Shown: positions 5,376-64,000 of the stretch, piece by piece
How positions within the stretch are numbered: position 1 is the first letter of the stretch
Layout: each line of letters starts with the position of its first letter
Source of the DNA: an uncultured Chlamydiae bacterium
GTDB taxonomy: Bacteria; Chlamydiota; Chlamydiia; Chlamydiales; Parachlamydiaceae
DNA length: 64,000 bases
Assembly: GCA_963754655.1 (NCBI GenBank)
Contig: CAVWGN010000001.1
Coordinates: 2,272,001-2,336,000 of the forward strand
Direction of reading: 5' to 3'
Made by a program: the position numbers and the translations under genes
Notes under the pieces: model-generated
Told to the model about the DNA's origin: nothing
The model's database searches: none
The model's input: the letters and a program-made list of their open reading frames with translations, nothing else

Positions 5376-5384
5376 TGAAACATT

Positions 5385-6398: not shown

Positions 6399-6418
6399 AC
6401 TTGTAATTGATACCCATT

Positions 6419-7909: not shown

Positions 7910-7918
7910 GGAACCATC

Positions 7919-45162: not shown

Positions 45163-46569
45163 ATGTTTTCTGTTAATGATATTGAAGTAAGATATTATCT
45201 TGATTTAGAAAATCAAGGAGAATGTAGAGTTTGCTCTAACAAATTTAGCAAAGAAGATTTATTGCAAGAAAAAGTCCATAAAACTTGGTGCAATCATTTT
45301 TTTCATACAGCTTGTTTAGATAATCTTTATAAAGCGAAGCCTTCAGAAAGTCTCCTTTGTAAGACTTGTAAAACACCCACAGATTATGCGTTCGATTCAA
45401 AAGATTGGAAAGCAACAATTGAAAGAATTCGACACCACATTCAGAACAGAGGAAGAGGAAGTAAAAGACATTTAGAAGACTCTAAAGAAGCATTGGTCAT
45501 ACCCCCTCCTAATTTCAAGCCTAGTCTTTGGCGTAAAATAGTGATGCATACTCTATCAAAAAATCGAGAGAGGCCCGATCTATTTTGTCGTTTTTTAACA
45601 ACTATTCAAGATATACGCTTAGTATGTAAAGATTTTTCTCAGTGGTTTTCCTTAGAGGAGTGTTCTCCAAGCTTAAAAATTTATTTAGAAAAAAATAACA
45701 TGCAAGCACATAAAATATTATCATCATCATTGGATAATCCACTCATTCTAGCCTGTGCAAAAAGAAATTTTAGCCTTATTCGCTTTTTGCTTTTGTCTTC
45801 AGATGATCCTACTACACTAGCAACACAGCGTGACGACTTTGGAGTAAATGCTTTTAATTATCTTCTTTTTAACAAACCGAACGTAAAGTCTTTGAAACTT
45901 ATGCTTGAGACAGCTCAAGTGGATATCTATGACGAATGCATGTATTCAGTAGACTGGGATTGCGGAGCGCTAGATTATTTAAATACTAATAAAGAAGATT
46001 TGGCTTGCATGAAATTGTTACTTGAAAAAGCGGACAATAAATATAACGTGTTGGATTATGAATTAGGCAACAGGCTGTTTAAAGGTGATAAAGAAATGGT
46101 TCTCTTTTTTCTAGATCAGTTATTTCAATTTTCTGATAAACCTGAGGTAGCCAATTTTTGTGCTAATTATGACTTTGCGCGCTTCTTTACTGATCACAAT
46201 ATACCAAAAGAAAAGCAGGGAGAATGGTTTGAAAAGTTTCTACCCAGAGAATTTATTCCTCGTTGGTTTAAACTTATGGAAAATGAACAATTTGAATGTA
46301 TTTTTACAGATAGTTCAAAGCGCAATCTTCTTCATAGCGCGATTTCAATTGGTGGAACAGTGGAACTTATTCAAGCCATTATTCAACATGCTCATGTAGA
46401 CCTTTTAAAGCCAAATTTTTTTTATGAATCCGTTCTAGTTTTAGCTTTAAACTCAACTAAGAGGGACATGGCAGAATACTTAGCTGAAACAATGCGTATG
46501 TTGGCGAAACAGCAGAATGATGAAGAAACATTAAATCGTATTGAAAATCTTATGCCAGAATTTGTTTAA
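45163..46569 (+). CDS. RING-H2, F-box-like and ankyrin-like protein (putative effector)
   Basis: CRVC..CNHFFHTAC..CKTC; PSLWRKIV..IRLVCKDF; NPLILAC, NLLHSAI and SVLVLAL. Confidence 0.7.
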   Translation: MFSVNDIEVRYYLDLENQGECRVCSNKFSKEDLLQEKVHKTWCNHFFHTACLDNLYKAKPSESLLCKTCKTPTDYAFDSKDWKATIERIRHHIQNRGRGSKRHLEDSKEALVIPPPNFKPSLWRKIVMHTLSKNRERPDLFCRFLTTIQDIRLVCKDFSQWFSLEECSPSLKIYLEKNNMQAHKILSSSLDNPLILACAKRNFSLIRFLLLSSDDPTTLATQRDDFGVNAFNYLLFNKPNVKSLKLMLETAQVDIYDECMYSVDWDCGALDYLNTNKEDLACMKLLLEKADNKYNVLDYELGNRLFKGDKEMVLFFLDQLFQFSDKPEVANFCANYDFARFFTDHNIPKEKQGEWFEKFLPREFIPRWFKLMENEQFECIFTDSSKRNLLHSAISIGGTVELIQAIIQHAHVDLLKPNFFYESVLVLALNSTKRDMAEYLAETMRMLAKQQNDEETLNRIENLMPEFV

Positions 46570-48046: not shown

Positions 48047-48568
48047 TTAACCGTGATTCTGAATAGCAGCCAAAATAACCTGTGGATCTTGTCTAAGAGC
48101 TGCATATTGAGGATCCTCGCCATCGTTCTGAATGGCAGCTAAGAGAATTGCTGGATCTTTTTTAAGGCTTTCATCTGGATGCAGAAGAATCTGAACATTT
48201 TTCTTAGCGGCAGCCAGGATCACCTGTCCAATCAGGTGATGTTGCTGAGATGTCCAATGCTCGCTCACCTCAATTCCCTTATAAATAATGGATTGAATGG
48301 ATTGAGCAGGATTTTCACGTTGAAAAAAAGGCTGTACCAGGGACTTCGCCCATGAGATGGAAGGATTTTTCTCAAGAATGCGTTTCCACTTTTGACAGGT
48401 AAGTAAAATAGAATAAATATCATGTAAAGCTTGGCTGTCTTGATTGATAATCCGATTAAAAATTATTTTGAATATATCCTCAGGAATGAATATATTGACA
48501 GCTTCATTTGAAGGATTTTGCGTGATTTGTGAATGATGACTGTTAATGTACATTATTATTATCTCCAT
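48047..48568 (-). CDS. Short F-box-like protein with degenerate DUF4116-type repeats
   Basis: IPEDIFKIIF..SILLTCQKWKRILEKNP matches the 9611 and 11123 genes; DESLKKDPAILLAAIQ. Confidence 0.7.
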   Translation of the reverse strand: MEIIIMYINSHHSQITQNPSNEAVNIFIPEDIFKIIFNRIINQDSQALHDIYSILLTCQKWKRILEKNPSISWAKSLVQPFFQRENPAQSIQSIIYKGIEVSEHWTSQQHHLIGQVILAAAKKNVQILLHPDESLKKDPAILLAAIQNDGEDPQYAALRQDPQVILAAIQNHG

Positions 48569-51194: not shown

Positions 51195-52572
51195 GCGCTT
51201 TCTCCCGCATTAGGTATTGAAGTCCATGATAGGGTGTCGAAGTATCGTCTCCAGCTTGTTCTGGTCCATGTTTTACTTTCTCATTCAGAAGATAAATAAA
51301 TAAGAAAAATAAGACGAGATAAACGACAGAAAACATGATAATAGAAGATAAGATTTGATTAGCTGTCACTGACTTAGAAAGGCCATCCGAGATACGCAAT
51401 AGTCCATATACAATCCAAGGATAGCGACCTGATTCAGCACAATACCATCCTGTTTGATTGCCAATTTGAGGCAAAACCACTGAAAAAACCAATGTCATTA
51501 AAAAATAAGGATGGGCTTCAAGACGTTTTTTAAACCAAAGATAGAGGCCTACAAGAGTTAAACAAAACATTACAGCCCACATCCCTAACATCAAACGATA
51601 AGCATTAAAAAGAACGGGAACATTCGGCCAATCGTCTTTGGGAATTTGATCTAAGCCTTTAATTTCCGCATCAAATGAACCAAATGATAAGAAGCTTAGC
51701 AGCTTGGGAATTTGAATGGCATACTCTAATTTTTCCTCCTTGGGATTGACAATCCCATAAATTGTTAAAGGCACACTCGATTCTGTTTTATAAAGAGCTT
51801 CTAAAGCTGCAAGCTTAGAGGGCTGATATTTGGCTACCACTTTGGCGCTTAGATCACCTACTACTAACTGTAAAATGCCAGAAATCAAAGCAACGAGTAA
51901 TCCAATGTACATGGAATTACGGGCGAAAATTAAATGCTTTTTTTTCAATAGATAATAAGCTGAAATGCTAATCACTAAAAATGCTCCAGCTAACCAACAC
52001 CCTAAAATCACATGAGCGAGTCGAATAGTTGACGACGGATTAAAAACCATTTCCCAAAAACTCGTGATTTCAGCGCGGGCTTGCACTCCCTCACCTACAA
52101 TGTGAAAACCTGTGGGAGTTTGCATCCAAGAATTAGCCACCACAATCCAAATAGCACTAAAATGAGCTCCTAGACATACCATCAAGCTAGAAAAAAAGTG
52201 CAGCTTTTTTCCAACCCGATTCCAACCAAAAATTAAAATTGCCAAAAAGCCCGATTCAAGAAAAAAGGCAAATACCCCTTCTGCCGCAAGTGCACTTCCA
52301 AATACATCTCCGACATAACGCGAATAAGTTGCCCAATTCGTTCCAAATTCAAATTCCATGACGATGCCTGTGGCCACTCCAATCGCAAAAGTTAAAGCAA
52401 AGACTTTGGTCCAAAATTGCGCCATTCGCAAATAAACGACATTGCTTGTTTTAAGATAAATGGCTTCCATAATGACCATGATTAAGCCAAGTCCAATGCT
52501 CAAAACAGGAAAAATGTAGTGAAACATAATGGTCAAAGCAAATTGAAAGCGCGCGAGCGTTAAGACGTCCAT
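51178..52572 (-). CDS. cydA: Cytochrome bd ubiquinol oxidase subunit I
   Basis: [37 protein letters not shown] and ESGRYPW. Confidence 0.96.
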
Positions 52573-52896
52573 ATGATTTCTAGCCAGAAGATTTGATTCA
52601 TTAATTTTTAAAACTCAACTTATATCAAACCCGAGAAATAAATTCATTAATTCAAGCTCAATCATGAGCCAGATTTTTGTGACGATCGTTTCGAAGTGAT
52701 ATTTCTTAATATTAATGAGAAATGATTGCTCAAAAGAAGACCATAAGTGAGCTTGAATTGATGAACTGATTGATAAGGATTAGAGTTAGGTAGCAAAAGT
52801 TCTAAAAGCCAAACTTAGAAAAATAGATTTTGAGAAAACTGCGCCTACGCCTTATCTAAAGAAAGAACTATTTTCCCAATATGACAGCCCTTTAGG

Positions 52897-53000
52897 CCAT
52901 ACGTATTAAGCTAAGAGATGAGCGTAGGCTACGCGCGACGCTTTCAGCCGCCACGCCGCTTCGCCTAATCTAGCACCCACTCTTAGCTTAATACGTATGG
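52897..53000. mobile_element. Short family B derivative inserted into a family A arm
   Basis: Perfect 21-bp TIR ccatacgtattaagctaagag; direct repeat ccctttagg on both sides (52888-52896 and 53001-53009). Confidence 0.8.
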
Positions 53001-53053
53001 CCCTTTAGGCCTAACGACAAAACCCTCAGCTAATTCAAAAACTTATCTTACTG

Positions 53054-53476
53054 CCCACATTCCTAGACCAGGAAGATAAGTTTTTTGAATTAGATAAGAG
53101 CTCTGTCGTTAGGCCTGAAGGGCCGTCATGTTACAGCCCAGGTCGAAGCGAAGCGGAGGCCTGGGTAAAATAAAAAAGAATCGAGTCCTGAAAGGACGGC
53201 ATACTCAAAGGAGTGATTTCGCTTCGCAAGGGAATGGAGGATTTTCTATCTCTACATTAGCTCTAGAAGGAGAAAAAAATATCTTGCTTCTCAAAAAGAA
53301 TACCGAATATTTGTGGGATTAATTTATGCCGTCCTTTCAGGAATCGATTCTTTTTTTTATTTTACCCAGGCCTCCGCTTCGCTTCGACCTGGGCTGTAAC
53401 ATGACGGCCCTTCAGGCCTAACGACAGAGCTCTTAACTAATTCAAAAAACTTATTCTCCTGGTCTAGGAATGTGGG
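53054..53476. mobile_element. Family A inverted pair enclosing an IS200-like/RAYT TnpA remnant
   Basis: Inverted arms of about 150 bp; spacer translates as ..DFASQGNGGFSIS..LLLKKNTEYLWD*. Confidence 0.75.
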
Positions 53477-53490
53477 TTACTGGTCTAGAC

Positions 53491-53811
53491 GGGTATGATT
53501 AAATCTGGGAGTTTATATTTTTTAGCAGATCGATACGAAATGGTAGGGCGGCGGTAGCTGCTTTCAGTGGGAAGCCCCGTATGAAGCGAGCTTGCGAGCG
53601 GAATGCGGGGTGTAGGCAAGATAGCATTGAGCTGCGGAAGCAGCGTAAGATCACTCACACCGCTTCCGTGGTTTATATTTATTGATGCCCACTCCGCATT
53701 CCACTCGCAAGCTCGCTTCATATGGGGCTTCCCACTGAAAGCGGCTACCGCCGCCCTACCATTTCGTATCGATCTGCTAAAAAATATAAACTCCCAGATT
53801 TAATCACACCC
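53491..53811. mobile_element. Palindromic MITE-like element, family D, copy 2
   Basis: Colinear with and highly similar to 2391-2706. Confidence 0.85.
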
Positions 53812-54092
53812 TTCTAGGAATATTATTTAAATTCTTCTAAATCAAAATGTTGGGATGTGTTATGCTATTTTTTATCTTTGCTACTTTTGACCTTTATTCT
53901 TATCTCTCTTACAAAACCTGGGAAAGATACGAAATCCAAAAATGAAATGGTTATTAATAAATTTTAATCAAAGACCTCCGCCATCTTTCAAGCTTGGACT
54001 TAAATCAGTGTCAATGAGCACATACTCGTGTAAACAATTATTAAATGTGTTAATTAAAAATAAATAAAATGATAATAATAAGGTAAATCATA

Positions 54093-56009
54093 ATGAATAT
54101 TCCAACTTCAAGTCTTCCTTTATGCACAGGTGTTGGATACAAGCGAAACTCCACTTGTATTCAACCTTTCCAACCTCCTCGTAAACGAATCAAACAAGAG
54201 ATTAACCCTCAGACAATCTCCTCTGCTTTTCCATTTTGGCAAGAATTATCAAACTATAAGGATATTATTCTAAAAATTAGTTCTTATCTTAGAATTAAAG
54301 ATTTACTCCATTTAGAAGCTACTCATAAAGCACAAGGCAATTATACTAAGGACTTTTGGATTCAAAAGAAAAAGGATTCTGTCCCTAATTGGGCAATGTG
54401 TGAAAAAGAGCCTCATCAAGATAAATGGAACGTCTGTTTAACTTCAGCACTTAAACGCTGCGTCAAAGAATTAGCAGCAAATTCCATGGGAATTAATGTG
54501 CCATTAGCCCAAAACATCTTTCTTTACTCTCAAGGACTTTTCAAAAGATTTCCCTTGTATGGATGTTATGTTAAAAGCGAAATAACTAAATTAGCTAATA
54601 ACTCCCCTAATATCTTAAATGAATTACAATCACAAAAAGATGAAATTTATCAGTTAGCTTTACAAAAAAAGGGAGGAGAATTAATTCTTCAAACTCTTTT
54701 TGAAATACACAATTATCTTTCTCAACCCAATGCACGATCCTATTATTTAATTAGCCAATATGCAACGGAGGCAATTAATCAAAAAGCTTATTGCATTAGC
54801 CTATTTGCTTTAAAACTATTCTATCAAAAAAATTCACACGCAAATTTAAATAATGATCAACGAAATCTATTAGAAGATTTAAGTCTACAGGCTGCTAAAA
54901 AAGGATATTTTTTGGCGTTAGATCTTTTGCTCTCTCACTATTCTCCAGCAGATGTCCAAAAGTTAATTGATCAAGGCTTGTGTTATGCTCCAGTGCTAGC
55001 TCAGCAGGCTGTTCAGTTTTTCTCTACACAGCAATGGAGACAAGCTGACGCGCTTTTAGTGGAGGCCATTGCTAAATATGGAAATAAAGTTCCAGCTAAG
55101 GTTTTAAATAATGCAGCTTACATTAAAATGCGCTTGAAGCAATATTCTGAAGCAGATGCTCTCTATGCCCAAGCAATTGTCAAGTATGGGCCTCAAGTTT
55201 CAGCTTATATTCTAGACAATGCCGCTTTCGTTAAAAAAGAATTGAAGCAATATTCTGAAGCAGATGCTCTCTATGCCCAAGCTATTGCCAAGTATGGGCC
55301 TCAAGTTCCAGCTTATGTTCTAAAATATTCCGCTTTCGTTAAAAAAGAATTGAAGCAATATTTTGAAGCAGATGCACTTTATGCCCAAGCAATTGCCAAG
55401 TATGGGCCTCAAGTTCCAGCTGATGTTCTAACCGATTCCGCTTTCGTTAAAAAAGAATTGAAGCAATACCCTGAAGCAGATGCTCTCTATGCCCAAGCAA
55501 TTGCCAAGTATGGGCCTCAAGTTCCAGCTGATGTTCTAACCAATTCCGCTTTCATTAAAATACAATTGAAGCAATATTCTGAAGGAGATGCTCTCTATGC
55601 TCAAGCAATTGCCAAGTATGGGCCTCAAGTTCCAGCTTATATTCTAGCTAATTCCGCTTTCGTTAAAAAAGAATTGAAGCAATATTTTGAAGCAGATGCA
55701 CTTTATGCCCCAGCAATTGCCAAGTATGGGGACCAAGTTCCAGCTTATGTTCTAGTCAATTCCGCTTTCGTTAAAAAAGAATTGAAGCAATACCCTGAAG
55801 CAGATGCTCTCCATGCCCAAGCAATTGCCAAGTATGGGGACCAAGTTCCAGCTTCTGTTCTAGCCAATTCCGCTTTCGTTAAACAAGAATTGAAGCAATA
55901 CCCTGAAGCAGATGCACTTTATGCCCAAGCAATTGCCAAGTATGGGCATCAAGTTCCAGCTGATGTTTTAGAGGCTGCAGCTCAAGTTAAACTTCAATTA
56001 AAAGAATAA
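54093..56009 (+). CDS. NLS-like, F-box-like and 36-aa TPR-like repeat protein 1 (8 repeats)
   Basis: PPRKRIK; DIILKISSYLRIKDLLHL; KQYSEADALYAQAIAKYGPQVPAYVLANSAFVKKEL-type repeats. Confidence 0.85.
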   Translation: MNIPTSSLPLCTGVGYKRNSTCIQPFQPPRKRIKQEINPQTISSAFPFWQELSNYKDIILKISSYLRIKDLLHLEATHKAQGNYTKDFWIQKKKDSVPNWAMCEKEPHQDKWNVCLTSALKRCVKELAANSMGINVPLAQNIFLYSQGLFKRFPLYGCYVKSEITKLANNSPNILNELQSQKDEIYQLALQKKGGELILQTLFEIHNYLSQPNARSYYLISQYATEAINQKAYCISLFALKLFYQKNSHANLNNDQRNLLEDLSLQAAKKGYFLALDLLLSHYSPADVQKLIDQGLCYAPVLAQQAVQFFSTQQWRQADALLVEAIAKYGNKVPAKVLNNAAYIKMRLKQYSEADALYAQAIVKYGPQVSAYILDNAAFVKKELKQYSEADALYAQAIAKYGPQVPAYVLKYSAFVKKELKQYFEADALYAQAIAKYGPQVPADVLTDSAFVKKELKQYPEADALYAQAIAKYGPQVPADVLTNSAFIKIQLKQYSEGDALYAQAIAKYGPQVPAYILANSAFVKKELKQYFEADALYAPAIAKYGDQVPAYVLVNSAFVKKELKQYPEADALHAQAIAKYGDQVPASVLANSAFVKQELKQYPEADALYAQAIAKYGHQVPADVLEAAAQVKLQLKE

Positions 56010-56478
56010 CCCGCAGGAGATCATCTTGTAATATGACGGCTCTTTAGGCCTTAGGCCATACCATCAACAAGTTAAGAGAGGGGCTTAGACTACGCAGCGA
56101 CTGAAGCGTCGTGTAGCCTAAACTCATCTGTTAGCTTGATGCGTATGACCCTTTAGGGCTAACTACAAAATCCTCAGCTAATTCAAAAACTTATCTTCCC
56201 GGCCTAGAAATGTGAGTTAAATTCTTCTAGATCAAAATGTTTGGATTTATTATGCTATTTTTTATCTTTGATACTTTTGGCCTTTATTCTTATCTTTCTT
56301 AAAAAAGTTGGGAAAGATATGAAATTCAAAATGAAGTAGTTATTAAGAAATTTTAATCGAAAGCCTCCTGCCATCAAGCTTGGACTTAAATCAGTCTCAA
56401 TGAGCACATCCTTATGTCCACAAGTACTAAATATATTAATTAAAAATAAAAAAAATGATAATAATAAGGTAAATCATA
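56010..56478. repeat. Conserved intergenic unit of the tandem array with a decayed A/B nested element (also 58723-59188 and 61754-62252)
   Basis: Near-identical spacers containing atgacggc.ctttaggcc..catac..aagttaagag..gcgtatg..aattcaaaaacttatctt, as at 52880-53050. Confidence 0.85.
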
Positions 56479-58722
56479 ATGAATATTCAAAGTTCGAGTC
56501 TTTCTTTATGTACAGGTGTGGGGCACAAACGAAACTCCAATTGTATTCAACCTTTCAAACCTCCTCGCAAGCGAATCAAACTAGAGGCCACCCCTCAGAA
56601 CAACTCCTCTGCTAATTTTCCATTTTGGCAAGAATTATCAAACTATAAGGATATTATTCTAAAAATTAGTTCTTATCTTAGAATTAAAGATTTACTCCAT
56701 TTAGAAGCTACTCATCAAGCACAAAGCAATTATACTAACGACTTTTGGACTCAAAAGAGAAAGGATTCTGTACCTAATTGGGCCATGTGTGAAAAAGAAC
56801 CTCATCAAGATAAATGGAACATCTGTTTAACTTCAGCACTTAAACGCTGCGTCAAAGAATTAGCAGCAAATCCCACGGGGATTAATGTGCCATTAGGCCA
56901 AAACATCTTTCTTTACTCTCAAGGACTTTTCAAAAGATTCCCATTGTATGGATGTTATGTTGAAAGCGAAATAGCTAAATTAGCTACTAGCTCTTCTAAT
57001 ACCTTAAACAAATTACAATCACAAAAAGATGAAATTTATCAGTTAGCTTTACAAAAAAAGGGAGGGGAATTAATTCTTCAAACTCTTTTTGAAATCCACA
57101 CTTATCTTTCTCAACCCAATGCACGATCCTATGATTTAATTAGCCAATATGCAAAAGAGGCAATTAATCAAAAAGCTTATTGCATTAGTCTATTTGCTTT
57201 AAAACTATTCTATCAAAAAACTTCACACGCAAATTTAAATCATGATCAACGAAATCTATTAGAAGATTTAAGTCTACAAGCTGCTAAAAAAGGATATTTT
57301 TTGGCGTTAGATCTTTTGCTATCTTACTATTCTCCAGCAGACGTCCAAAAGTTAATTGATCAAGGCTTGTGTTATGCTCCAGTGCTAGCCCACCATGCTG
57401 TTCAGTTTTTCTCTACGCAGCAATGGGGAAAAGCGGACGCTCTTTTAGTGCAGGCCATCGCTAAATATGGGAATAAAGTTCCATTTAAGGTTTTAGATAA
57501 TGCAGCTTACCTTAAAACGTACTTGAAGCAATATTCTGAAGCAGATGCTCTCTATACCCAAGCAATTGTCAAGTATGGGCCTCAAGTTCCAGCTTACATT
57601 CTAGACAATGCCGCTTTCGTTAAAAACGAATTGAAGCAATATTCTGAAGCAGATGCACTTTATACCCAAGCAATTGCCAAGTATGGGCCTCAAGTTCCAG
57701 ATTATGTTCTAGCAAATTCCGCTTTCATTAAAAAAGAATTGAAGCAATATTTTGAAGCAGATGCAATTTATGCCCAAGCAATTGTCAAGTATGGGCCTCA
57801 AGTTCCAGATGATGTTCTAGCAAATTCCGCTTTCGTTAAAAAAGAATTGAAGCAATATTCTGAAGCAGATGCTCTCTATGCCCAAACTATGGCCAAGTAT
57901 GGACCTCAAGTTCCAGCTCATGTTCTAGCCAATTCCGCTTTCGTTAAACAAGAATTGAAGCAATATTTTGAAGCAGATGCACTTTATGCCCAAGCAATTG
58001 CCAAGTATGGGCCTCAAGTTCCAGCTTCTGTTCTAGAAAATGTCGCTTTCGTTAAAAAAGAATTGAAGCAATGTTTTGAAGCAGATGCACTTTATGCCCA
58101 AGCAATTGCCAAGTATGAGCCTCAAGTTCCAGCTTCTGTTCTAGCCAATTCCGCTTTCATTAAAATACAATTGAAGCAATATTTTGAAGGAGATGCTCTC
58201 TATGCCCAAGCTTTTGCCAAGTATGGGCTTCAAGTTCCAGATTATGTTCTAGCAAATGTCGCTTTCGTTAAACTAAAATTGAAGCACTATTCTGAAGCAG
58301 ATGCTCTTTATGCCCAAGCTTTTGCCAAGTATGGACCTCAAGTTCCAGATTATGTTCTAAACAATGCCGCTTTCGTTAAAAAAGAATTGAAGCAATATTT
58401 TGAAGCGGATGCATTTTATGCCCAAGCAATTGCCAAGTATGGGGACCAAGTTCCAGCTTCTGTTCTAGCCCATTCCGCTTTCGTTAAAAAAGAATTGAAT
58501 CAATACCCTGAAGCAGATGATCTCTATGCCCAAGCAATTGCCAAGGATGGAGACCAAATTCCAGCTTATGTTCTAACCCATTCCGCTTTCGTTAAAAAAG
58601 AATTGAAGCAATACCCTGAAGCATATGCACTTTATGCCCAAGCAATTGCCAAGTATGGGCCTCAAGTTCCAGATGATGTTTTAGAGGCTGCAGCTCAAGT
58701 TAAACTTCAATTAAAAGAATAA
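56479..58722 (+). CDS. NLS-like, F-box-like and 36-aa TPR-like repeat protein 2 (11 repeats)
   Basis: Paralog of 54093 with three additional repeats. Confidence 0.85.
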   Translation: MNIQSSSLSLCTGVGHKRNSNCIQPFKPPRKRIKLEATPQNNSSANFPFWQELSNYKDIILKISSYLRIKDLLHLEATHQAQSNYTNDFWTQKRKDSVPNWAMCEKEPHQDKWNICLTSALKRCVKELAANPTGINVPLGQNIFLYSQGLFKRFPLYGCYVESEIAKLATSSSNTLNKLQSQKDEIYQLALQKKGGELILQTLFEIHTYLSQPNARSYDLISQYAKEAINQKAYCISLFALKLFYQKTSHANLNHDQRNLLEDLSLQAAKKGYFLALDLLLSYYSPADVQKLIDQGLCYAPVLAHHAVQFFSTQQWGKADALLVQAIAKYGNKVPFKVLDNAAYLKTYLKQYSEADALYTQAIVKYGPQVPAYILDNAAFVKNELKQYSEADALYTQAIAKYGPQVPDYVLANSAFIKKELKQYFEADAIYAQAIVKYGPQVPDDVLANSAFVKKELKQYSEADALYAQTMAKYGPQVPAHVLANSAFVKQELKQYFEADALYAQAIAKYGPQVPASVLENVAFVKKELKQCFEADALYAQAIAKYEPQVPASVLANSAFIKIQLKQYFEGDALYAQAFAKYGLQVPDYVLANVAFVKLKLKHYSEADALYAQAFAKYGPQVPDYVLNNAAFVKKELKQYFEADAFYAQAIAKYGDQVPASVLAHSAFVKKELNQYPEADDLYAQAIAKDGDQIPAYVLTHSAFVKKELKQYPEAYALYAQAIAKYGPQVPDDVLEAAAQVKLQLKE

Positions 58723-59188
58723 CCCGCAGGAGATCATCTTGTAATATGACGGCCCTTTAGGCCTTAGGCCATACCATCAACAAGTTAAGAGAGGGGCTTA
58801 GACTACGCGGCGACTGAAGCGTTGTGTAGCCTAAACCCATCTGTTAGCTTAATGCTATGACCTTTAGGCCTAACTACAAATCCTCAGCTAATTCAAAAAC
58901 TTACCTTCCGGTCCTAGAAATGTGAGTTAAATTCTTCTAGATCAAAATGTTTGGATTTATTATGCTATTTTTTATCTTTGATACTTTTGGCCTTTATTCT
59001 TGTCTTTCTTACAAAAGTTGGGAAAGATATGAAATTCAAAATGAAGTAGTTATTAAGAAATTTTAATCAAAAGCCTCCTGCCATCAAGCCTGGACTTAAA
59101 TCAGTCTCAATGAGCACATACTTATATCACCAACTATTAAATGTATTAATTAAAAATAAAGAAAATGATAATAATAAGGTAAATCATA

Positions 59189-61753
59189 ATGAATATTCAA
59201 AGTTCAAGTCTTCCTTTATGCACAGGTGTTGGATACAAGCGAAACTCCACTTGTATTCAACCTTTCCAACCTCCTCGTAAACGAATCAAACAAGAGATTA
59301 ACCCTCAGACAATCTCCTCTACTTTTCCATTTTGGCAAGAATTATCAATCTATAAGGATATTATTCTAAAAATTAGTTCTTATCTTAGAATTAAAGATTT
59401 ACTCCATTTAGAAGCTACTCATAAAGCACAAGGCAATTATACTAAGGACTTTTGGATTCAAAAGAAAAAGGATTCTGTCCCTAATTGGGCAATGTGTGAA
59501 AAAGAGCCTCATCAAGATAAATGGAACGTCTGTTTAACTTCAGCACTTAAACGCTGCGTCAAAGAATTAGCAGCAAATTCCATGGGAATTAATGTGCCAT
59601 TAGCCCAAAACATCTTTCTTTACTCTCAAGGACTTTTCAAAAGATTTCCCTTGTATGGATGTTATGTTAAAAGCGAAATAACTAAATTAGCTAATAACTC
59701 CCCTAATATCTTAAATGAATTACAATCACAAAAAGATGAAATTTATCAGTTAGCTTTACAAAAAAAGGGAGGAGAATTAATTCTTCAAACTCTTTTTGAA
59801 ATACACAATTATCTCTCTCAACCCAATGCCCGATCCTATTATTTAATTAGCCAATATGCAACTGAGGCAATTAATCAAAAAGCTTATTGCATTAGCCTAT
59901 TTGCTTTAAAACTATTCTATCAAAAAACTTCACACGCAAATTTAAATAATGATCAACGAAATCTATTAGAAGATTTAAGTCTACAGGCTGCTAAAAAAGG
60001 ATATTTTTTGGCGTTAGATCTTTTGCTCTCTCACTATTCTCCAGCAGATGTCCAAAAGTTAATTGATCAAGGCTTATGTTATGCTCCAGTGCTAGCTCAG
60101 CAGGCTGTTCAGTTTTTCTCTACACAGCAATGGAGACAAGCTGACGCGCTTTTAGTGGAGGCCATTGCTAAATATGGGAATAAAGTTCCAGCTAAGGTTT
60201 TAAATAATGCAGCTTACATTAAAATGCGCTTGAAGCAATATTCTGAAGCAGATGCTCTCTATGCCCAAGCTATTGCCAAGTATGGGCCTCAAGTTTCAGC
60301 TTATATTCTAGACAATGCCGCTTTCGTTAAAAAAGAATTGAAGCAATATTCTGAAGCAGATGCTCTCTATGCCCAAGCAATTGCCAAGTATGGGCCTCAA
60401 GTTTCAGCTTATATTCTAAACAATGCAGCTTACATTAAAATGCAATTGAAGCAATATTCTGAAGCAGATGCTCTCTATGCCCAAGCAATTGTCAAGTATG
60501 GGCCTCAAGTTCCAGCTTATATTCTAGACAATGCCGCTTTCGTTAAAAAAGAATTGAAGCAATATTCTGAAGCAGATGCTCTCTATGCCCAAGCAATTGC
60601 CAAGTATGAGCCTCAAGTTTCAGATTATGTTCTAGCAAATTCCGCTTTCGTTAAAAAAGAATTGAAGCAATATTTTGAAGCAGATGCACTTTATGCCCGA
60701 GCTATTGCCCAGTATGGGCCTCAAGTTCCAGATTATGTTCTAGCACATTCCGCTTACATTAAAATGCAATTGAAGCAATATTCTGAAGCAGATGCTCTCT
60801 ATGCCCAAGCAATTGCCAAGTATGGGCCTCAAGTTCCAGATTATGTTCTAACAAATTCCGCTTACATTAAAATGCAATTGAAGCAATATTCTGAAGCAGA
60901 TGCTCTCTATGCCCAAGCTTTTGCCAAGTATGGGCCCCAAGTTCCAGCTTATATTCTAGCCAATTCCACTTTCGTTAAAAAAGAATTGAAGCAATACCCT
61001 GAAGCAGATGCACTTTATGCCCAAGCAATTGCCAAGTATGGGGACCAAGTTCCAGCTTCTGTTCTAAACAATGCCGCTTTCGTTAAAAAAGAATTGAAGC
61101 AATACCCTGAAGCAGATGCACTTTATGCCCAAGCAATTGCCAAGTATGGAGACCAAGTTCCAGTTTCTGTTCTAGTCCTGTCCGCTTTCGTGAAAAAAGA
61201 ATTGAAGCAATACCCTGAAGCAGATGCTCTCCATGCCCAAGCAATTGCCAAGTATGGAGACCAAATTCCAGCTTATGTTCTAACCGATTCCGCTTTCGTG
61301 AAAAAAGAATTGAAGCAATACCCTGAAGCAGATGCACTTTATGCCCAAGCAATTGCCAAGTATGGAGACCAAGTTCCAGCTTATATTCTAGTCAATTCCG
61401 CTTTCGTGAAAAAAGAATTGAACCAATACCCTGAAGCAGATGCTCTCCATGCTCAAGCAATTGCCAAGTATGGGGACCAAGTTCCAGCTTATGTTCTAAA
61501 CAATGCCGCTTTCGTTAAAAAAAAATTGAAGCAATATTTTGAAGCAGATGATCTCTATGCCCGAGCAATTGCCAAGGATGGAGACCAAATTCCAGCTTCT
61601 GTTCTAGCCAATTCCGCTTTCGTTAAAAAAGAATTGAAGCAATACCCTGAAGCGGATGCACTTTATGCCCAAGCAATTGCCAAGCTTGGACCGCAAGTTC
61701 CAGCTGATGTTTTAGAGGCTGCAGCTCAAGTTAAACTTCAATTAAAAGAATAA
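59189..61753 (+). CDS. NLS-like, F-box-like and 36-aa TPR-like repeat protein 3 (14 repeats)
   Basis: N-terminal domain almost identical to protein 1; 216 aa (6 repeats) longer. Confidence 0.85.
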   Translation: MNIQSSSLPLCTGVGYKRNSTCIQPFQPPRKRIKQEINPQTISSTFPFWQELSIYKDIILKISSYLRIKDLLHLEATHKAQGNYTKDFWIQKKKDSVPNWAMCEKEPHQDKWNVCLTSALKRCVKELAANSMGINVPLAQNIFLYSQGLFKRFPLYGCYVKSEITKLANNSPNILNELQSQKDEIYQLALQKKGGELILQTLFEIHNYLSQPNARSYYLISQYATEAINQKAYCISLFALKLFYQKTSHANLNNDQRNLLEDLSLQAAKKGYFLALDLLLSHYSPADVQKLIDQGLCYAPVLAQQAVQFFSTQQWRQADALLVEAIAKYGNKVPAKVLNNAAYIKMRLKQYSEADALYAQAIAKYGPQVSAYILDNAAFVKKELKQYSEADALYAQAIAKYGPQVSAYILNNAAYIKMQLKQYSEADALYAQAIVKYGPQVPAYILDNAAFVKKELKQYSEADALYAQAIAKYEPQVSDYVLANSAFVKKELKQYFEADALYARAIAQYGPQVPDYVLAHSAYIKMQLKQYSEADALYAQAIAKYGPQVPDYVLTNSAYIKMQLKQYSEADALYAQAFAKYGPQVPAYILANSTFVKKELKQYPEADALYAQAIAKYGDQVPASVLNNAAFVKKELKQYPEADALYAQAIAKYGDQVPVSVLVLSAFVKKELKQYPEADALHAQAIAKYGDQIPAYVLTDSAFVKKELKQYPEADALYAQAIAKYGDQVPAYILVNSAFVKKELNQYPEADALHAQAIAKYGDQVPAYVLNNAAFVKKKLKQYFEADDLYARAIAKDGDQIPASVLANSAFVKKELKQYPEADALYAQAIAKLGPQVPADVLEAAAQVKLQLKE

Positions 61754-62252
61754 CCCGCAGGAGATGATCTTGTAATATGACGGCTCTTTAGGCCTTAGGC
61801 CATACCATCAACAAGCTAAGAGATGGGCTTAGACTACGCGGCGACTGAAGCGTCTTGTAGTCTAAACTCATCTGTTAGCTTGATGCGTATGAGACCCTTT
61901 AGGCCTAACTACAAAATCCTCAGCTAATTCAAAAACTTATCTTCCCGGCCTAGAAATGTGAGTTAAATTCTTCTGGATCAAAATGTTTGGATTTATTATG
62001 CTATTTTTTATCTTGGATACTTTTGGCCTTTATTCTTATCTTTCTTACAAAAGTTGGGAAAGATATGAAGTTCAAAATAAAGTAGTTATTAAGAAATTTT
62101 AATCAAAAATACCCCTGCCATCTTTCAAGCTTAGACTTAAATCAGTCTCAATGAGCACATACTTGTGTAAACAAGTATTGAATGTATAAATTAAAAACAA
62201 AGATAGTTATAATAACTAAAAGATATTTATAATAAATTAAAGGTAAATCATA

Positions 62253-64000
62253 ATGAATATTCAAAGTTCGAGTCTTCCTTTATATACAGGTATTGGATAC
62301 AAGCGAAACTCCACTTGTATTCAACCTTTCCAACCTCCTCGCAAACGAATCAAACAAGAGATTAACCCTCAGAACAGCTCCTCTACTTTTCCATTTTGGC
62401 AAGAATTATCAAACTATAAGGACATTATTCTAAAGATTGGTTCCTATCTTAGAATTAAAGACTTACTTCATCTAGAAGCTACTCATCAAGCACAAAGCAA
62501 TTATACTAAGGATTTTTGGACTCAAAAGAGAAAGGATTCTGTACCTAATTGGGCCATGTGTGAAAAAGAGCCCCATCAAGATAAATGGGACGTCTGTTTA
62601 AATTCAGCACTTAAACGCTCTGTCAAAGAATTAGCAGCAAATTCCGCAGGGATTAATGTGTCATTAGCTCAAAATATCTTTCTTTACTCTCAAGGACTTT
62701 TCAAAAGATTTCCCTTGTATGGATGTTATGTTAAAAGCGAAATAGCTAAATTAGCTAGTAGCTCCCCTAATATCTTAAATGAATTAAAATCACAAAAAGA
62801 TGAAATTTACCAGTTAGCTTTACAAAAAAAGGGAGGAGAATTAATTCTTCAAACTCTTTTTGAAATCCATAATTATCTTCTTCAATCCAATGCACGATCC
62901 TATCACTTAATTAGCCAATATGCAACCGAGGCAATTAATCAAAAAGCTTATTGCATTAGTCTATTTGCTTTAAAACTATTCTATCAAAAAATTGCACATG
63001 CAAATTTAAATAATGATCAACGAATTCTATTAGAAAATTTAAGTCTACAGGCTGCTAAAAAAGGATATTTTTTGGCGTTAGATCTTTTGCTCTCTCACTA
63101 TTCTCCGGCAGACGTCCAAAAGTTAATTGATCAAGGCTTGTGTTATGCTCCAGTGCTAGCCCAGCAGGCTGTTCAGTTTTTCTCTACACAGCAATGGGGA
63201 AAAGCGGACGCGCTTTTAGTGGAGGCCATCGCTAAATATGGGAATAAAGTTCCAGCTAAGGTTTTAGATAATGCAGCTTACATTAAAATGCGATTGAAGC
63301 AATATTCTGAAGCAGATGCTCTCTATGCCCAAGCAATTGTCAAGTATGGGCCTCAAGTTCCAGCTCTTGTTCTAGACAATGCCGCTTTCGTTAAAATAGA
63401 ATTGAAGCAATATTCTGAAGCAGATGCTCTCTATTACCAAGCTATTGCCAAGTATGAACCTCAAGTTCCAGCTCTTGTTCTAGATCAGGCAGCTTACATT
63501 AAAATGCAATTGAAGCAAGATTCTGAAGCAGATGCTCTCTATGCCCAAGCAATTGTCAAGTATGGGCCTCAAGTTCCAGCTTATGTTCTAAAATATTCCG
63601 CTTTCGTTAAAAAAAAATTGAAGCAATATTCTGAAGCAGATGCACTTTATACCCAAGCAATTGCCAAGTATGGGCCTCAAGTTCCAGCTTATATTCTAGA
63701 CAATGCCGCTTTCGTTAAAACAGAATTGAAGCAATATCCTGAAGCAGATGCTCTCTATGCCCAAGCTATTGCCAAGTATGAACCTCAAGTTCCAGCTAAT
63801 GTTCTAGCCAATTCCGCTTTCGTTAAAAAAGAATTGAAGCAATATCCTGAAGCAGATGATCTCTATGCCCGAGCAATTGCCAAGGATGAACCTCAAGTTC
63901 CAGCTAATGTTCTAGCCGATTCCGCTTTCGTTAAAAAAGAATTGAAGCAATATCCTGAAGCAGATGATCTCTATGCCCGAGCAATTGCCAAGGATGAACC
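62253..64000 (+). CDS. NLS-like, F-box-like and 36-aa TPR-like repeat protein 4 (runs off the window, at least 7 repeats)
   Basis: ATG at 62253 after the same aggtaaatcata leader; MNIQSSSLPLYTGIGYKRN..PPRKRIK; 108-bp repeats continue to the window end. Confidence 0.82.
   Translation, partial: MNIQSSSLPLYTGIGYKRNSTCIQPFQPPRKRIKQEINPQNSSSTFPFWQELSNYKDIILKIGSYLRIKDLLHLEATHQAQSNYTKDFWTQKRKDSVPNWAMCEKEPHQDKWDVCLNSALKRSVKELAANSAGINVSLAQNIFLYSQGLFKRFPLYGCYVKSEIAKLASSSPNILNELKSQKDEIYQLALQKKGGELILQTLFEIHNYLLQSNARSYHLISQYATEAINQKAYCISLFALKLFYQKIAHANLNNDQRILLENLSLQAAKKGYFLALDLLLSHYSPADVQKLIDQGLCYAPVLAQQAVQFFSTQQWGKADALLVEAIAKYGNKVPAKVLDNAAYIKMRLKQYSEADALYAQAIVKYGPQVPALVLDNAAFVKIELKQYSEADALYYQAIAKYEPQVPALVLDQAAYIKMQLKQDSEADALYAQAIVKYGPQVPAYVLKYSAFVKKKLKQYSEADALYTQAIAKYGPQVPAYILDNAAFVKTELKQYPEADALYAQAIAKYEPQVPANVLANSAFVKKELKQYPEADDLYARAIAKDEPQVPANVLADSAFVKKELKQYPEADDLYARAIAKDE

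Follow-up and report, generated by a model that had tools for sequence, protein, structure and literature searches.

The window, the whole 64,000-nucleotide stretch of DNA analysed here, closes with four plus-strand open reading frames encoding tandem paralogs of 638, 747 and 854 amino acids and a fourth that is still open at the window end. They open a series of nine same-strand paralogs in the genome (C1:2326093-2351354; 422-854 aa), the array running on beyond the window; the first-pass annotation had recognised at least four such genes with repeats, and the array is real and larger than that. Read in register, genes 1-9 carry 9, 12, 15, 15, 3, 14, 9, 7 and 4 units of 36 amino acids, a total of 88 that counts the cap as well as the divergent first unit. 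The 8, 11 and 14 repeats originally counted in the complete window genes had left out the first unit and become 9, 12 and 15; Tandem Repeats Finder reports 108-bp arrays of 7.8, 10.8, 13.8 and 7.0 copies in the window (87-90% matches, scores 1067-2073). Paralog 1 (54093..56009, 638 aa), delimited by its ORF, its unit register and Pfam TPR_12/TPR_10, comprises a disordered N-terminus, an F-box-like segment, a helical linker and nine TPR units (55029..56006, plus strand; 9 x 36 aa plus a terminal KE), the last of them a polar cap. Paralog 2 (56479..58722, 747 aa) has 12 TPR units from 57418 and paralog 3 (59189..61753, 854 aa) 15 units from 60125, while paralog 4 (62253..64000, array from 63189) is cut by the window end and in the genome extends to 854 aa and 15 units. 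All four window genes encode PPRKRIK together with the motif YKDIILKISSYLRIKDLL, and all three complete ones end in DVLEAAAQVKLQLKE, the common cap that had been noticed before; across the nine paralogs, every reading frame is intact and the cap ending is identical. Ahead of paralog 1 lies a conserved region of ~200 bp (53880..54092, plus strand) with AAGGTAAATCATA at its end before the ATG. In an alignment of nine 400-bp upstream stretches, this region is kept ahead of all nine genes (the copies preceding paralogs 2-4 end at 56478, 59188 and 62252), and a promoter scan gave no excess over shuffles (30 found versus 32.2 expected).

The genome, assembled into two contigs, encodes four TLC nucleotide transporters and one FHIPEP export gate. 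It also contains 20 further Pfam F-box matches, none within the nine-gene array, in agreement with the initial remark that F-box families are expanded. The window additionally encodes a U-box/ankyrin protein. HrpJ (a type III marker) and Chlam_OMP6 (a chlamydial marker) were not found in the genome, and the control genomes were silent for them too. Related arrays are present in other genomes, and one relative carries the NCBI source name 'Chlamydiales bacterium'.

Residues 1-45 of paralog 1 are Ser-rich and modelled as disordered (pLDDT <50 at 1-25 and 29-36). They hold a basic motif (54141..54194, plus strand; residues 17-34) of KR, 11 residues and RKRIK, which takes in P-P-R-K-R-I-K and, judged by its sequence, resembles a c-Myc-type/bipartite NLS. 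Alignments of the family show little or no variation at K17, R18, P28 and K31. The pattern P-x-x-K-[KR]-x-[KR] is found near the N-terminus (residues 1-70) in 8 of the 9 paralogs and in 28 of the 153 family representatives, compared with 20 of 2007 genome ORFs of at least 150 aa; the NLS motif first proposed is thus borne out as an NLS-like sequence, enriched over the genome's ORFs and located in a disordered N-terminus.

The segment that follows (54231..54374, plus strand; residues 47-94), outlined by the relatives' alignment and by fold matches, is modelled as three helices (47-64, 68-77 and 81-94). Even at E<=10, Pfam F-box matches none of the window proteins, and residues 1-330 match no Pfam family, whereas among the 90 family members scanned 14 match Pfam F-box and 11 F-box-like (E<=0.01; best 1.4e-5), and in three relatives (L012, L016, L011) the F-box match falls at the position aligned to the paralog 1 segment. 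The family consensus reads LP-[DE]-[LIV][LIV]-x-x-I-x-S-[FY]-L-x-x-K-D-L-L-x-F-E. Leu-Pro mutation abolishes Skp1 binding in several F-box proteins; this pair stands at the start of F-box helix 1 in 62%/71% of family members, is replaced by Thr-Cys or Ile-Cys in 46%-identical relatives and by Asn-Tyr in all nine copies here, while other consensus residues are kept (I62, L66, D70-L71-L72, W89). With the modelled segment, 13 of the 16 Foldseek matches listed are F-box proteins, at E-values of at least 2.6. VIA-align lists 50 matches, of which 18, Legionella AnkB among them, are F-box proteins in complex with Skp1 at Z 3.5-5.1, values no higher than those of neighbouring unrelated matches, and is led by two Elongin A matches (Z 7.0 and 5.5); a profile search of PDB sequences reached F-box proteins only at E 0.3-2.3. 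The putative F-box is partly supported, because relatives match Pfam F-box and the fold matches, though low-scoring, are enriched in F-box proteins; the original F-box call stands to this extent, but finds no Pfam match in the window proteins and no Leu-Pro. The segment leads into a helical linker or solenoid (54375..55028, plus strand; residues 95-312), all-helical with pLDDT mostly >90, which has no Pfam match and belongs to no named family; structural superposition of residues 118-348 on TPR-type solenoids gives Z 8-10.6, scores that do not discriminate among helical repeats.

By their sequence profiles, the 36-aa repeats are TPRs, the fold that had been assumed for them. Pfam TPR_12 and TPR_10 exceed their cut-offs in all four window proteins (paralog 1: 45.3 bits against 30.1, and 40.3 against 27.5), and the same four proteins match neither a PPR nor a TAL family at E<=1. 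Among PDB sequences, the family profile matches engineered consensus TPRs best (E 5.5e-51 to 3.6e-32); the TPRs of O-GlcNAc transferase (OGT) match at E 3.6e-20 and designed PPR proteins at E 5e-16. Because the family helix a-x-v-l-x-n-a-a aligns opposite AEAWYNLG of the consensus TPR, unit position 23 corresponds to TPR position 1 and Asn28 to the TPR Asn6, and Pfam TPR_2 yields the identical register (unit 23 = TPR 1). The Asn28 column also holds Asn in OGT repeats, and here 47 of 70 internal units have Asn at TPR position 6.

But where does the variation between such similar units fall? Over the 70 internal units, entropy peaks at position 27 (2.62 bits), 24 (2.13) and 34 (1.83), followed by 28 (1.79), 4 (1.51) and 19 (1.32). 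Positions 24, 27, 28 and 34 are TPR positions 2, 5, 6 and 12, and the less variable 31 and 35 are TPR 9 and 13; the ligand contacts given for HOP in the available part of PMC1261162 are 2, 5, 6, 9, 12 and 13. Four of the top six entropy positions fall in this contact set (hypergeometric p ~0.003), and position 19 is TPR 33, which the same part of that source lists as another variable concave position. The suggestion that variable residues line a helix-A groove agrees with these assignments; of the two variable residue pairs described with it, the hypervariable sites hold, but the first residue of the first pair, position 23, varies only mildly (0.76 bits; A60 D7 V2 T1). An independent array of 21 units in another genus (G006) has exactly 24, 35, 34, 27, 31 and 28 as its six most variable positions. 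The modelled helix covers unit positions 23-35, and positions 24/27/28/31/34/35 should share one of its faces because they are spaced i, i+3, i+4, i+7, i+10 and i+11, so that TPR register and helix geometry together predict a single variable surface. Convex-face and loop residues, although equally exposed, are nearly invariant over the 70 units. Positions 24/27/28/34 show 54 distinct residue combinations among the 88 units; across all nine proteins, the net charge of the predicted ligand face is -1 to -7 and the pI of the repeat array 5.0-8.7. In the polar cap, F31 is replaced by Q.

The N-terminal 312 amino acids are under purifying selection (mean dN/dS 0.30, range 0.21-0.49 over 36 pairs). 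Over all repeat codons, omega is ~1 (pN 0.133 versus pS 0.140; second estimate 1.06). Repeat sites 4, 24, 27 and 28 lie 2.7-4.5-fold above the array-wide synonymous rate (Poisson, Bonferroni-significant), and the dN/dS check proposed at the outset gives an omega above 1 at the contact positions, from 1.6 against their own synonymous rate (one-sided p ~0.03-0.07) to 2.4-4.1 against the global dS, by a counting method that ignores recombination in arrays where unit exchange is present. The first-pass annotation placed the changes mostly at codon positions 1-2, and nucleotide diversity in the six most variable codons is indeed 0.40/0.41/0.26 at positions 1/2/3, compared with 0.10/0.08/0.09 in the remaining 30. 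The repeat shuffling it postulated is visible as a mosaic reuse of units between genes: units that are the same or differ by 1-3 nt occur at different indices (G4.9 = G6.6, G1.2 ~ G3.4, G4.6 ~ G8.4), while 83 of the 88 units are distinct at the nucleotide level. The genes are 88-98% identical, with a dS of 0.02-0.25 between their non-repetitive halves.

We read the locus as a tandemly amplified, eukaryote-like F-box/TPR family of a bacterium of obligate-intracellular type, probably an environmental chlamydia. Its members are most likely injected effectors that serve as substrate receptors of the host SCF ubiquitin ligase; the proteins probably enter the host nucleus and hand host proteins to the ubiquitin machinery. 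The disordered, Ser-rich N-terminus (1-45) would carry the secretion signal, and its c-Myc-type/bipartite NLS would take the protein into the host nucleus, while the F-box-like segment (47-94), its fold weakly indicated, would dock on host Skp1 or a Skp1-like adaptor. From there, the modelled linker (95-312) passes unbroken into the TPR superhelix, built of 3-15 near-identical 36-aa units, whose concave face may bind a host polypeptide in extended form, one that is probably disordered. The Asn at TPR position 6 may form a backbone-binding ladder, as in OGT, and the hypervariable TPR positions 2, 5 and 12 (9, 13) would give side-chain specificity. The gene and its upstream region were duplicated as whole units, with repeat units gained, lost and swapped between copies; diversification of the ligand-face residues, with the adaptor half under purifying selection, would result in nine receptors of different predicted specificities. 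Differences between the paralogs are concentrated at the residues predicted to contact the target. Expanded F-box/TPR families as such have already been published for Parachlamydiaceae.

The expansion could instead be largely non-adaptive, the product of birth-and-death and genomic drift, with the variable sites being exposed, unconstrained TPR positions. We regard this as possible but unlikely: omega is ~1 over all repeat codons and only 1.6 at contact codons against their own synonymous rate, Domman et al. propose drift for large F-box/BTB families without positive selection (available text of PMC4209131), and TPRs in general vary most at the very same positions (available text of PMC1261162), but against drift stand the 2.7-4.5-fold, Bonferroni-significant excess at sites 4, 24, 27 and 28, the near-invariance of equally exposed convex-face and loop residues, the lead of the same six positions in the G006 array, and nine reading frames and upstream regions that are all intact. 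Rather doubtful in our view is a vestigial F-box, the proteins then being host-entering TPR scaffolds or decoys that sequester host (nuclear) proteins without SCF, or that use another adaptor (Elongin C). The missing Pfam match, Asn-Tyr in all nine copies and Elongin A as top structural match, in place of a Skp1-bound F-box, would fit such a role, but purifying selection acts on the segment as on the entire N-terminal region, the remaining consensus is retained, and Skp1-bound F-boxes make up 18 of the 50 structural matches.

That the array reads nucleic acid by a per-repeat code, in the style of TALE or PPR proteins, as first suggested, is now strongly disfavoured. Near-identical repeats with 2-4 variable residues each, their 54 combinations, the nuclear-targeting motif and the match to designed PPR proteins are what such a code would predict, but the predicted ligand face has a negative net charge, PPR and TAL families are absent from the four window proteins at E<=1, and consensus TPRs match far better than PPRs (5.5e-51 versus 5e-16). 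Moreover, TALE/PPR code positions lie in the inter-helix loop, whereas here the variable residues sit inside helix A at peptide-contact positions. It is hardly credible that a shorter locus was misassembled into this array, even if highly similar 108-bp units in genes of 88-98% identity are hard to assemble and the only public run found has the region solely as short contigs of up to ~500 bp: nine intact ORFs with a common cap, 88 in-frame units of which 83 are distinct, non-repetitive halves that differ between paralogs, a genome in two contigs and related arrays elsewhere all speak against it.

Finally, we would like to place the F-box/TPR effector family that we favour among known systems. 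In the part of their paper available to us, Domman et al. 2014 (PMC4209131) describe NEX2, a Parachlamydiaceae F-box and TPR family with a type III signal in tested representatives. NEX2 resembles the present family in its N-terminal F-box, its C-terminal TPR repeats of variable number and purifying selection over the whole gene, and NEX2 and the F-box/BTB/U-box families share with it tandem arrays whose copy number differs sharply between close relatives. However, NEX2 has a mid-protein DUF294 where residues 1-330 here lack any Pfam family, and the F-box here escapes Pfam and has no Leu-Pro. The available text reports no positive selection, whereas the site-wise counts here point to ligand-face diversification, and 'nucleus' and 'nuclear localization' are absent from it. 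Legionella pneumophila AnkB and Agrobacterium VirF, translocated bacterial proteins that hijack the host SCF, also combine an N-terminal F-box with a C-terminal interaction module, and 5k35, a structure of AnkB bound to Skp1, appears in the segment's fold matches (Z 3.8). AnkB has ankyrin repeats and is membrane-anchored, and the targets of VirF are nuclear. Neither of them forms a tandem array of nine genes with near-identical repeats, and their Skp1 binding is demonstrated, whereas Skp1 binding, translocation and SCF hijack are predicted here.

OGT shares the long TPR superhelix (profile E 3.6e-20) and the recurring Asn column to which Asn28 corresponds, its asparagine ladder presumably sitting at TPR position 6. 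According to the available part of PMC11145291, the OGT Asn contacts extended peptides through their backbone in bidentate fashion, with neighbouring residues giving selectivity. By contrast, only 47 of the 70 internal units here carry the Asn, a catalytic domain is absent and peptide binding is predicted. Designed consensus TPRs (CTPRs) and repeat libraries show the same near-invariant scaffold with variation only at concave-face positions, and the polar last unit (F31 to Q) is like the solvating helix, a feature of CTPR design; the present array, however, has a natural 36-aa unit instead of 34 aa and sits in a putative effector with F-box and NLS-like parts. With TALE and PPR proteins, the family shares tandem, near-identical helical repeats of 33-36 aa, few variable residues and reshuffling of units, but it differs in its acidic to neutral ligand face, its TPR profiles and the placement of its variable residues within helix A.

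The first-pass annotation had described tandem paralogs with 108-bp repeats, a PPRKRIK motif, a further shared motif and a common C-terminal cap, and ORF calls together with Tandem Repeats Finder confirmed this description. Within the window, four plus-strand ORFs lie at 54093-56009 (638 aa), 56479-58722 (747 aa), 59189-61753 (854 aa) and from 62253 past the window end at 64000; their 108-bp arrays comprise 7.8, 10.8, 13.8 and 7.0 copies (matches 87-90%), and PPRKRIK and the motif YKDIILKISSYLRIKDLL are present in all four, with the common cap at the end of the three complete genes. When the N-terminal 330 aa were searched against the genome that holds the window (2 contigs, 3.16 Mb), nine copies emerged on a single strand, at C1:2326093-2351354 of the contig carrying the array. 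Paralogs 1 to 9 measure 638, 747, 854, 854, 422, 818, 638, 566 and 458 aa and hold 9, 12, 15, 15, 3, 14, 9, 7 and 4 units, each of exactly 36 aa; among the total of 88 units, 81 are distinct as protein and 83 as DNA. The same upstream sequence of ~200 bp, ending AAGGTAAATCATA-ATG, stands before all nine copies, which argues that gene-plus-upstream units were duplicated whole. The array is split just past the window end: at C1:2338940-2342022, paralogs 5 and 6 are separated by an IS481-type transposase (rve, LZ_Tnp_IS481) and two small ORFs. An 89-aa antisense ORF inside the repeats of paralog 3 (61083-61352, minus strand) is itself periodic and is therefore most likely a by-product of the repeats, not a gene. 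Upstream of the array, the 1.5 kb between cydA and the first paralog (52573-54092) contain no ORF of at least 80 aa; here, 53014-53841 reaches a summed depth of 17-37 in soil-metagenome contigs versus 1-7 for the adjoining genes, with several loose ends, and may be a dispersed repeat. Over the window, soil-metagenome DNA consists of short contigs only (85-100% identity) with gaps, for example none at 56533-57153; such gaps are no sign of absence, and coverage of this kind is no check on the assembly. Rfam returned no family on 52400-64000, promoter and terminator scans gave no excess over shuffles, and a search for RNA data carrying the region listed none.

Matched against Pfam, the repeats are TPRs: all four window proteins score above the gathering cut-off for both TPR_12 (38.9-75.3 bits, cut-off 30.1) and TPR_10 (31.2-75.1 bits, cut-off 27.5). 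A profile built from 112 family members matches engineered consensus TPR proteins (E 5.5e-51 to 3.6e-32), the TPR domain of OGT (3.6e-20), kinesin light chain (1.6e-19) and designed PPRs (5e-16); these matches came with the profile, whereas the TPR array of one protein, used alone as query, retrieved no PDB sequence at E<=0.001. In the printed alignments the family helix a-x-v-l-x-n-a-a-x-v-K-x-x-L aligns on AEAWYNLGNAYYKQ of the consensus TPR, which makes unit position 23 equivalent to TPR position 1. The register is the same with Pfam TPR_2 (residues 335-364 on profile positions 1-30), and L26, A30, A6, Y10 and A13 fall at TPR positions 4, 8, 20, 24 and 27 in the alignment to the consensus TPR. 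The structural model, which covers the first unit, shows the TPR helix-turn-helix there (helices 315-329 and 335-347). The array period of 108 bp, or 36 aa, differs from the 34-residue TPR period, and the two extra residues sit in the G-P-Q-V-P loop that joins one repeat to the next. The clan admits longer variants, TPR_10 and TPR_12 among them, and the unit is a TPR plus two loop residues.

Variation within the unit is concentrated at TPR contact positions. Across 70 internal units, entropy is highest at unit positions 27 (2.62 bits), 24 (2.13), 34 (1.83) and 28 (1.79), followed by 4 (1.51) and 19 (1.32), with moderate values at 31 (0.98) and 35 (1.03); in TPR numbering these three groups correspond to positions 5, 2, 12 and 6, to 18 and 33, and to 9 and 13. 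The 'first pair' of residues had been singled out as hypervariable, which holds for its second member, position 24, but not for its first, position 23, which is only mildly variable. Magliery and Regan (PMC1261162) report positions 2, 5, 9, 12, 13, 33 and 34, on the concave face, as the most variable in TPRs and positions 2, 5, 6, 9, 12 and 13 as the ligand contacts of HOP; four of our six top-entropy positions lie within this six-position contact set (hypergeometric p about 0.003). A fifth, unit position 19, is TPR position 33. The helix bearing the variable positions spans unit positions 23-35 in the model of residues 1-348, and the spacing of 24, 27, 28, 31, 34 and 35 (i, +3, +4, +7, +10, +11) places them, by register and helix geometry, on a single helical face. 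The same six recur elsewhere: in two genes (21 units) of G006, a genome of another genus whose copies share 26% N-terminal identity, the six top-ranked positions are precisely 24, 35, 34, 27, 31 and 28, and this set supplies five of the eight highest-ranked positions in metagenome proteins of 46% identity (26 units). Asn occupies unit position 28 (TPR position 6) in 47/70 units of the array, 13/21 of the G006 genes and 17/26 of the metagenome proteins, and this residue falls on the Asn that recurs in the OGT repeats, whose asparagine ladder we take to be located at TPR position 6. As described in PMC11145291, the OGT ladder holds the backbone of an extended peptide, and neighbouring residues give selectivity.

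What, then, would such a face bind, and how did it come to vary? The first-pass annotation had left the ligand as protein or nucleic acid, and reading of nucleic acid in the manner of TALE or PPR proteins fared poorly in the comparison: no PPR or TAL family matches any of the four window proteins in Pfam at E<=1, and the predicted ligand face, far from basic, has a net charge of -1 to -7. Nucleic acid is disfavoured as the ligand because of this charge and the array pI of 5.0-8.7. A diversity-generating retroelement as the source of the variation was likewise rejected, as the consensus of the most variable codon, GCC, lacks adenine, the changes show no specificity for adenine, and the sole element inside the array is the IS481-type transposase, scanned over the first 277 of its 373 aa, beside two small ORFs (232 and 171 aa) outside the scan. 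Units do move between genes. Equal or near-equal units stand at different indices in different paralogs (unit 9 of paralog 4 equals unit 6 of paralog 6; unit 2 of paralog 1 and unit 4 of paralog 3 are 1 nt apart, unit 6 of paralog 4 and unit 4 of paralog 8 are 2 nt apart), which supports gain, loss and exchange of units, and units 7 and 8 of paralog 4 are equal, a fresh tandem duplicate.

Selection differs between the two halves of the proteins. Over the N-terminal 312 aa of the nine copies, mean dN is 0.047 and dS 0.156, with a ratio of 0.30 (range 0.21-0.49, 36 pairs). Pairwise pN/pS in the repeats is 0.133/0.140 overall, 0.38/0.26 at the six most variable codons and 0.082/0.118 elsewhere; picking sites by variability is circular, which a contact set fixed a priori avoids. 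Taken jointly, the six canonical contact positions have an omega of 1.6 versus their own synonymous rate and, versus the global rate, 2.4 (all-site tree) or 4.1 (tree from which the variable codons were left out). When changes are counted by parsimony on a FastTree of the 70 units, sites 4, 24, 27 and 28 stand at 2.7- to 4.5-fold the synonymous rate of the whole array (Poisson p 2e-4 to 8e-10, significant after Bonferroni correction), with sites 25 and 34 nominally significant; all these counts ignore recombination and the trees rest on 108 bp. That the changes fall mostly at codon positions 1-2 was borne out by nucleotide diversity. Judging from the codon counts, constraint at the contact positions appears clearly released, but diversifying selection there is probable, not proven.

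The N-terminal model (residues 1-348 of paralog 1; pLDDT 88, pTM 0.83) has a disordered stretch at residues 1-45, helices at 47-64, 68-77 and 81-94, and then an unbroken helical solenoid into the first TPR. The disordered part reads KR, 11 residues, RKRIK, and PPRKRIK with the upstream KR is found in all four window genes; in relatives as distant as 21-24% identity, K17, R18, P28 and K31 stay invariant or almost invariant. Within their first 70 residues, 8/9 paralogs, 28/153 family representatives and 20/2007 genome ORFs carry the pattern P-x-x-K-[KR]-x-[KR], and 9/9, 30/153 and 21/2007, respectively, a bipartite pattern; the NLS-like motif is thus enriched about 18-fold over genome ORFs. Importin-alpha recognizes NLS classes of the form K-K/R-x-K/R (P-x-x-K-R-x-K in the c-Myc type) or bipartite ones in which KR is paired with a basic cluster, and we liken the motif found here to the c-Myc class. 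With its basic cluster in a segment modelled as disordered, it would be accessible in the way a classical importin-alpha NLS is. The NLS proposed from the first reading of the sequence hence stands as a conserved motif in a modelled-disordered region; nuclear import itself we infer. A lipoprotein reading of the nearby 'LPLC' was set aside: Cys11 has no preceding hydrophobic stretch, paralog 4 has Tyr in its place, and the column holds Cys in just 12% of the family.

Is the segment that follows an F-box, as had been suggested? None of the genome's 20 Pfam F-box matches (PF00646 / PF12937) lies within the array, Pfam returned 0 families on residues 1-330 and 1-116 even at E<=10, and the Leu-Pro at the start of helix 1 is Asn-Tyr in 9/9 paralogs. 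Relatives are closer to the canonical form: among 90 family members, 14 match F-box and 11 F-box-like at E<=0.01, three of seven scanned relatives match Pfam F-box just under cut-off at the position aligned to residues 55-95, and the 112-row family alignment has the consensus L(62%)-P(71%)-x-[DE]-[LIV]-[LIV]-x-x-I-x-S-[FY]-L-x-x-K-D-L-L-x-F-E...K...T...W. A model of residues 38-135 (pLDDT 82) predicts the three-helix fold of F-boxes in Skp1 complexes. F-box proteins make up 13 of the 16 matches listed by Foldseek (E >=2.6) and 18 of the 50 listed by VIA-align (Z 3.5-5.1, with unrelated rows at similar Z), among them Cdc4, FBXO31, FBXO3, Fbw7, beta-TrCP, FBXL2, Skp2 and Legionella AnkB; two Elongin A rows (Z 7.0 and 5.5) stand above them. 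The enrichment of F-box proteins is strong and each single score weak, and sequence-profile matches to F-box chains have E 0.3-2.3. The suggestion thus holds for the fold and for the relatives' Pfam matches but not for an own Pfam match or the Leu-Pro: by predicted fold and ancestry we consider the segment an F-box, with Skp1 binding of this subclade only putative. For the middle part, superposition on TPR-type solenoids reaches Z 8-10.6, a score with no discriminating power among helical repeats; the whole N-terminal model has no PDB match at E<=0.001 in Foldseek, generic helical-repeat rows only, and in the ESM Atlas the best score, 0.85, is below the useful range (ankyrin and viral clusters). 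The N-terminal region defines an unnamed family consisting of a divergent F-box and a ~220-aa helical linker. At L011:1336-3195 (minus strand; a relative's locus in genome G023), a 619-aa ORF appears to hold two consecutive F-box-plus-linker copies and almost no TPR array, and its Pfam F-box match comes from the second copy.

Among 1.84 billion proteins, 253 cluster representatives match the N-terminal profile at E<=0.001, 84 of them at <=1e-30. The distribution among genomes is patchy, with the family in 0/3 congeners, 4/41 relatives (own genome included) and 5/200 scored genomes of an order sample, one further genome being left unscored. Several of these genomes have tandem sets too, for example G006 at C3:1234664 and 1238701 and at C2:166296-171873, and another genome, G199, at C28:290565-298837. 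Where given, source names of relatives are 'hypothetical protein', 'Tfp pilus assembly protein PilF' or 'TPR repeat protein', and one is recorded from 'Chlamydiales bacterium'. In one-genome-per-species contigs, an 8-row alignment gave 47 pattern matches to related loci, none of them confirmed. The genome's content fits an environmental chlamydia, as initially assumed, with the phylum probable on the same footing, because it includes four TLC nucleotide transporters, one FHIPEP export gate, the F-box matches (20, of which 17 above cut-off), and U-box/ankyrin and DUF4116 proteins; searches for Chlam_OMP6 and HrpJ gave no match, with the controls silent too, so that these negatives are uninformative. 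A second tandem set, part of the 20 F-box matches but outside the window and positionally unrelated to the TPR array, lies at C1:2072209-2083658; its seven ORFs (~463-471 aa, minus strand) all match Pfam F-box, at 19.5-23.1 bits. Within the window, a 695-aa protein (76-2163, minus strand) that combines a U-box (32.8 bits, cut-off 21.4) and ankyrin repeats is a candidate eukaryote-like effector of ubiquitin-ligase type, and a 468-aa protein (45163-46569, plus strand) has sub-threshold RING-finger (21.3 bits) and ankyrin (26.8 bits) matches. DUF4116 repeat proteins are encoded at 9611-11032 (plus strand, 9 repeats), 11123-12271 (plus strand, 5 repeats) and 48047-48568 (minus strand), the last being small, with an N-terminal 'IPEDIFKIIFNRI' stretch that is F-box-like by eye. 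An arginine succinyltransferase (AST) catabolic cluster (2783-9298, plus strand; astA-like, astD, astB, transaminase, M20 hydrolase) sits in this otherwise host-dependent-looking genome, and an IS256-family transposase (381.5 bits, cut-off 150) lies at 25422-26624 (plus strand).

F-box/repeat effectors are a route by which several intracellular bacteria seize host ubiquitination, and we know of no targets assigned to the large chlamydial F-box/repeat families. The best-supported reading of the array is a set of nine substrate receptors that would be injected into the host cell. The disordered N-terminus would supply the secretion signal and nuclear import, the divergent F-box would dock on a host Skp1-type adaptor, the rigid linker would place the repeat array, and the concave face of the TPR superhelix would hold extended host polypeptides via the Asn ladder and its variable neighbours, presumably for ubiquitination. 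A more far-reaching version, which taken as a whole we think improbable, makes the array a natural, shuffle-able 'TPR library': a semi-regular asparagine ladder would hold the extended host polypeptide, each 36-aa unit would read a short stretch via positions 2, 5 and 12, unit order and number (3-15) would encode long disordered or repetitive nuclear targets, and unit exchange among the nine genes would retarget an SCF-type degradation signal. If true, this would be a protein-reading counterpart of the TALE and PPR codes, independently recurring in several chlamydial genera. The array offers nine close natural variants that share a scaffold resembling designed consensus TPRs and differ almost only in unit number and at the residues predicted to contact the ligand; this makes target finding by comparative pull-down unusually tractable, as it does structure-guided tests of how TPR superhelices read extended peptides.

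Finally, we would like to place the array among the known chlamydial families. Domman et al. 2014 (PMC4209131) describe massive expansions of F-box, BTB and U-box proteins in Parachlamydiaceae, with tandem arrays, variable repeat numbers and overall purifying selection, type III signals in tested members of related families, and a NEX2 family with an N-terminal F-box, DUF294 in mid-protein and C-terminal TPRs. As far as that text goes, F-box and TPR features such as these are already described, and the array therefore belongs to a known kind. It differs from NEX2 in its middle region, which contains no Pfam family, whereas both end modules are present. A literature search gave, among the matches listed, no paper joining F-box, NLS and Parachlamydiaceae, and the terms 'nucleus' and 'nuclear localization' do not occur in the text of PMC4209131; the conserved NLS-like motif hints at the nucleus as the place where the proteins act, on which the 2014 text is silent. 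Relative to that text, then, the unnamed N-terminal module and the conserved NLS-like motif look additional, as do the consensus-like scaffold, the confinement of variation to canonical contact positions and the recurrence of this pattern in another genus.
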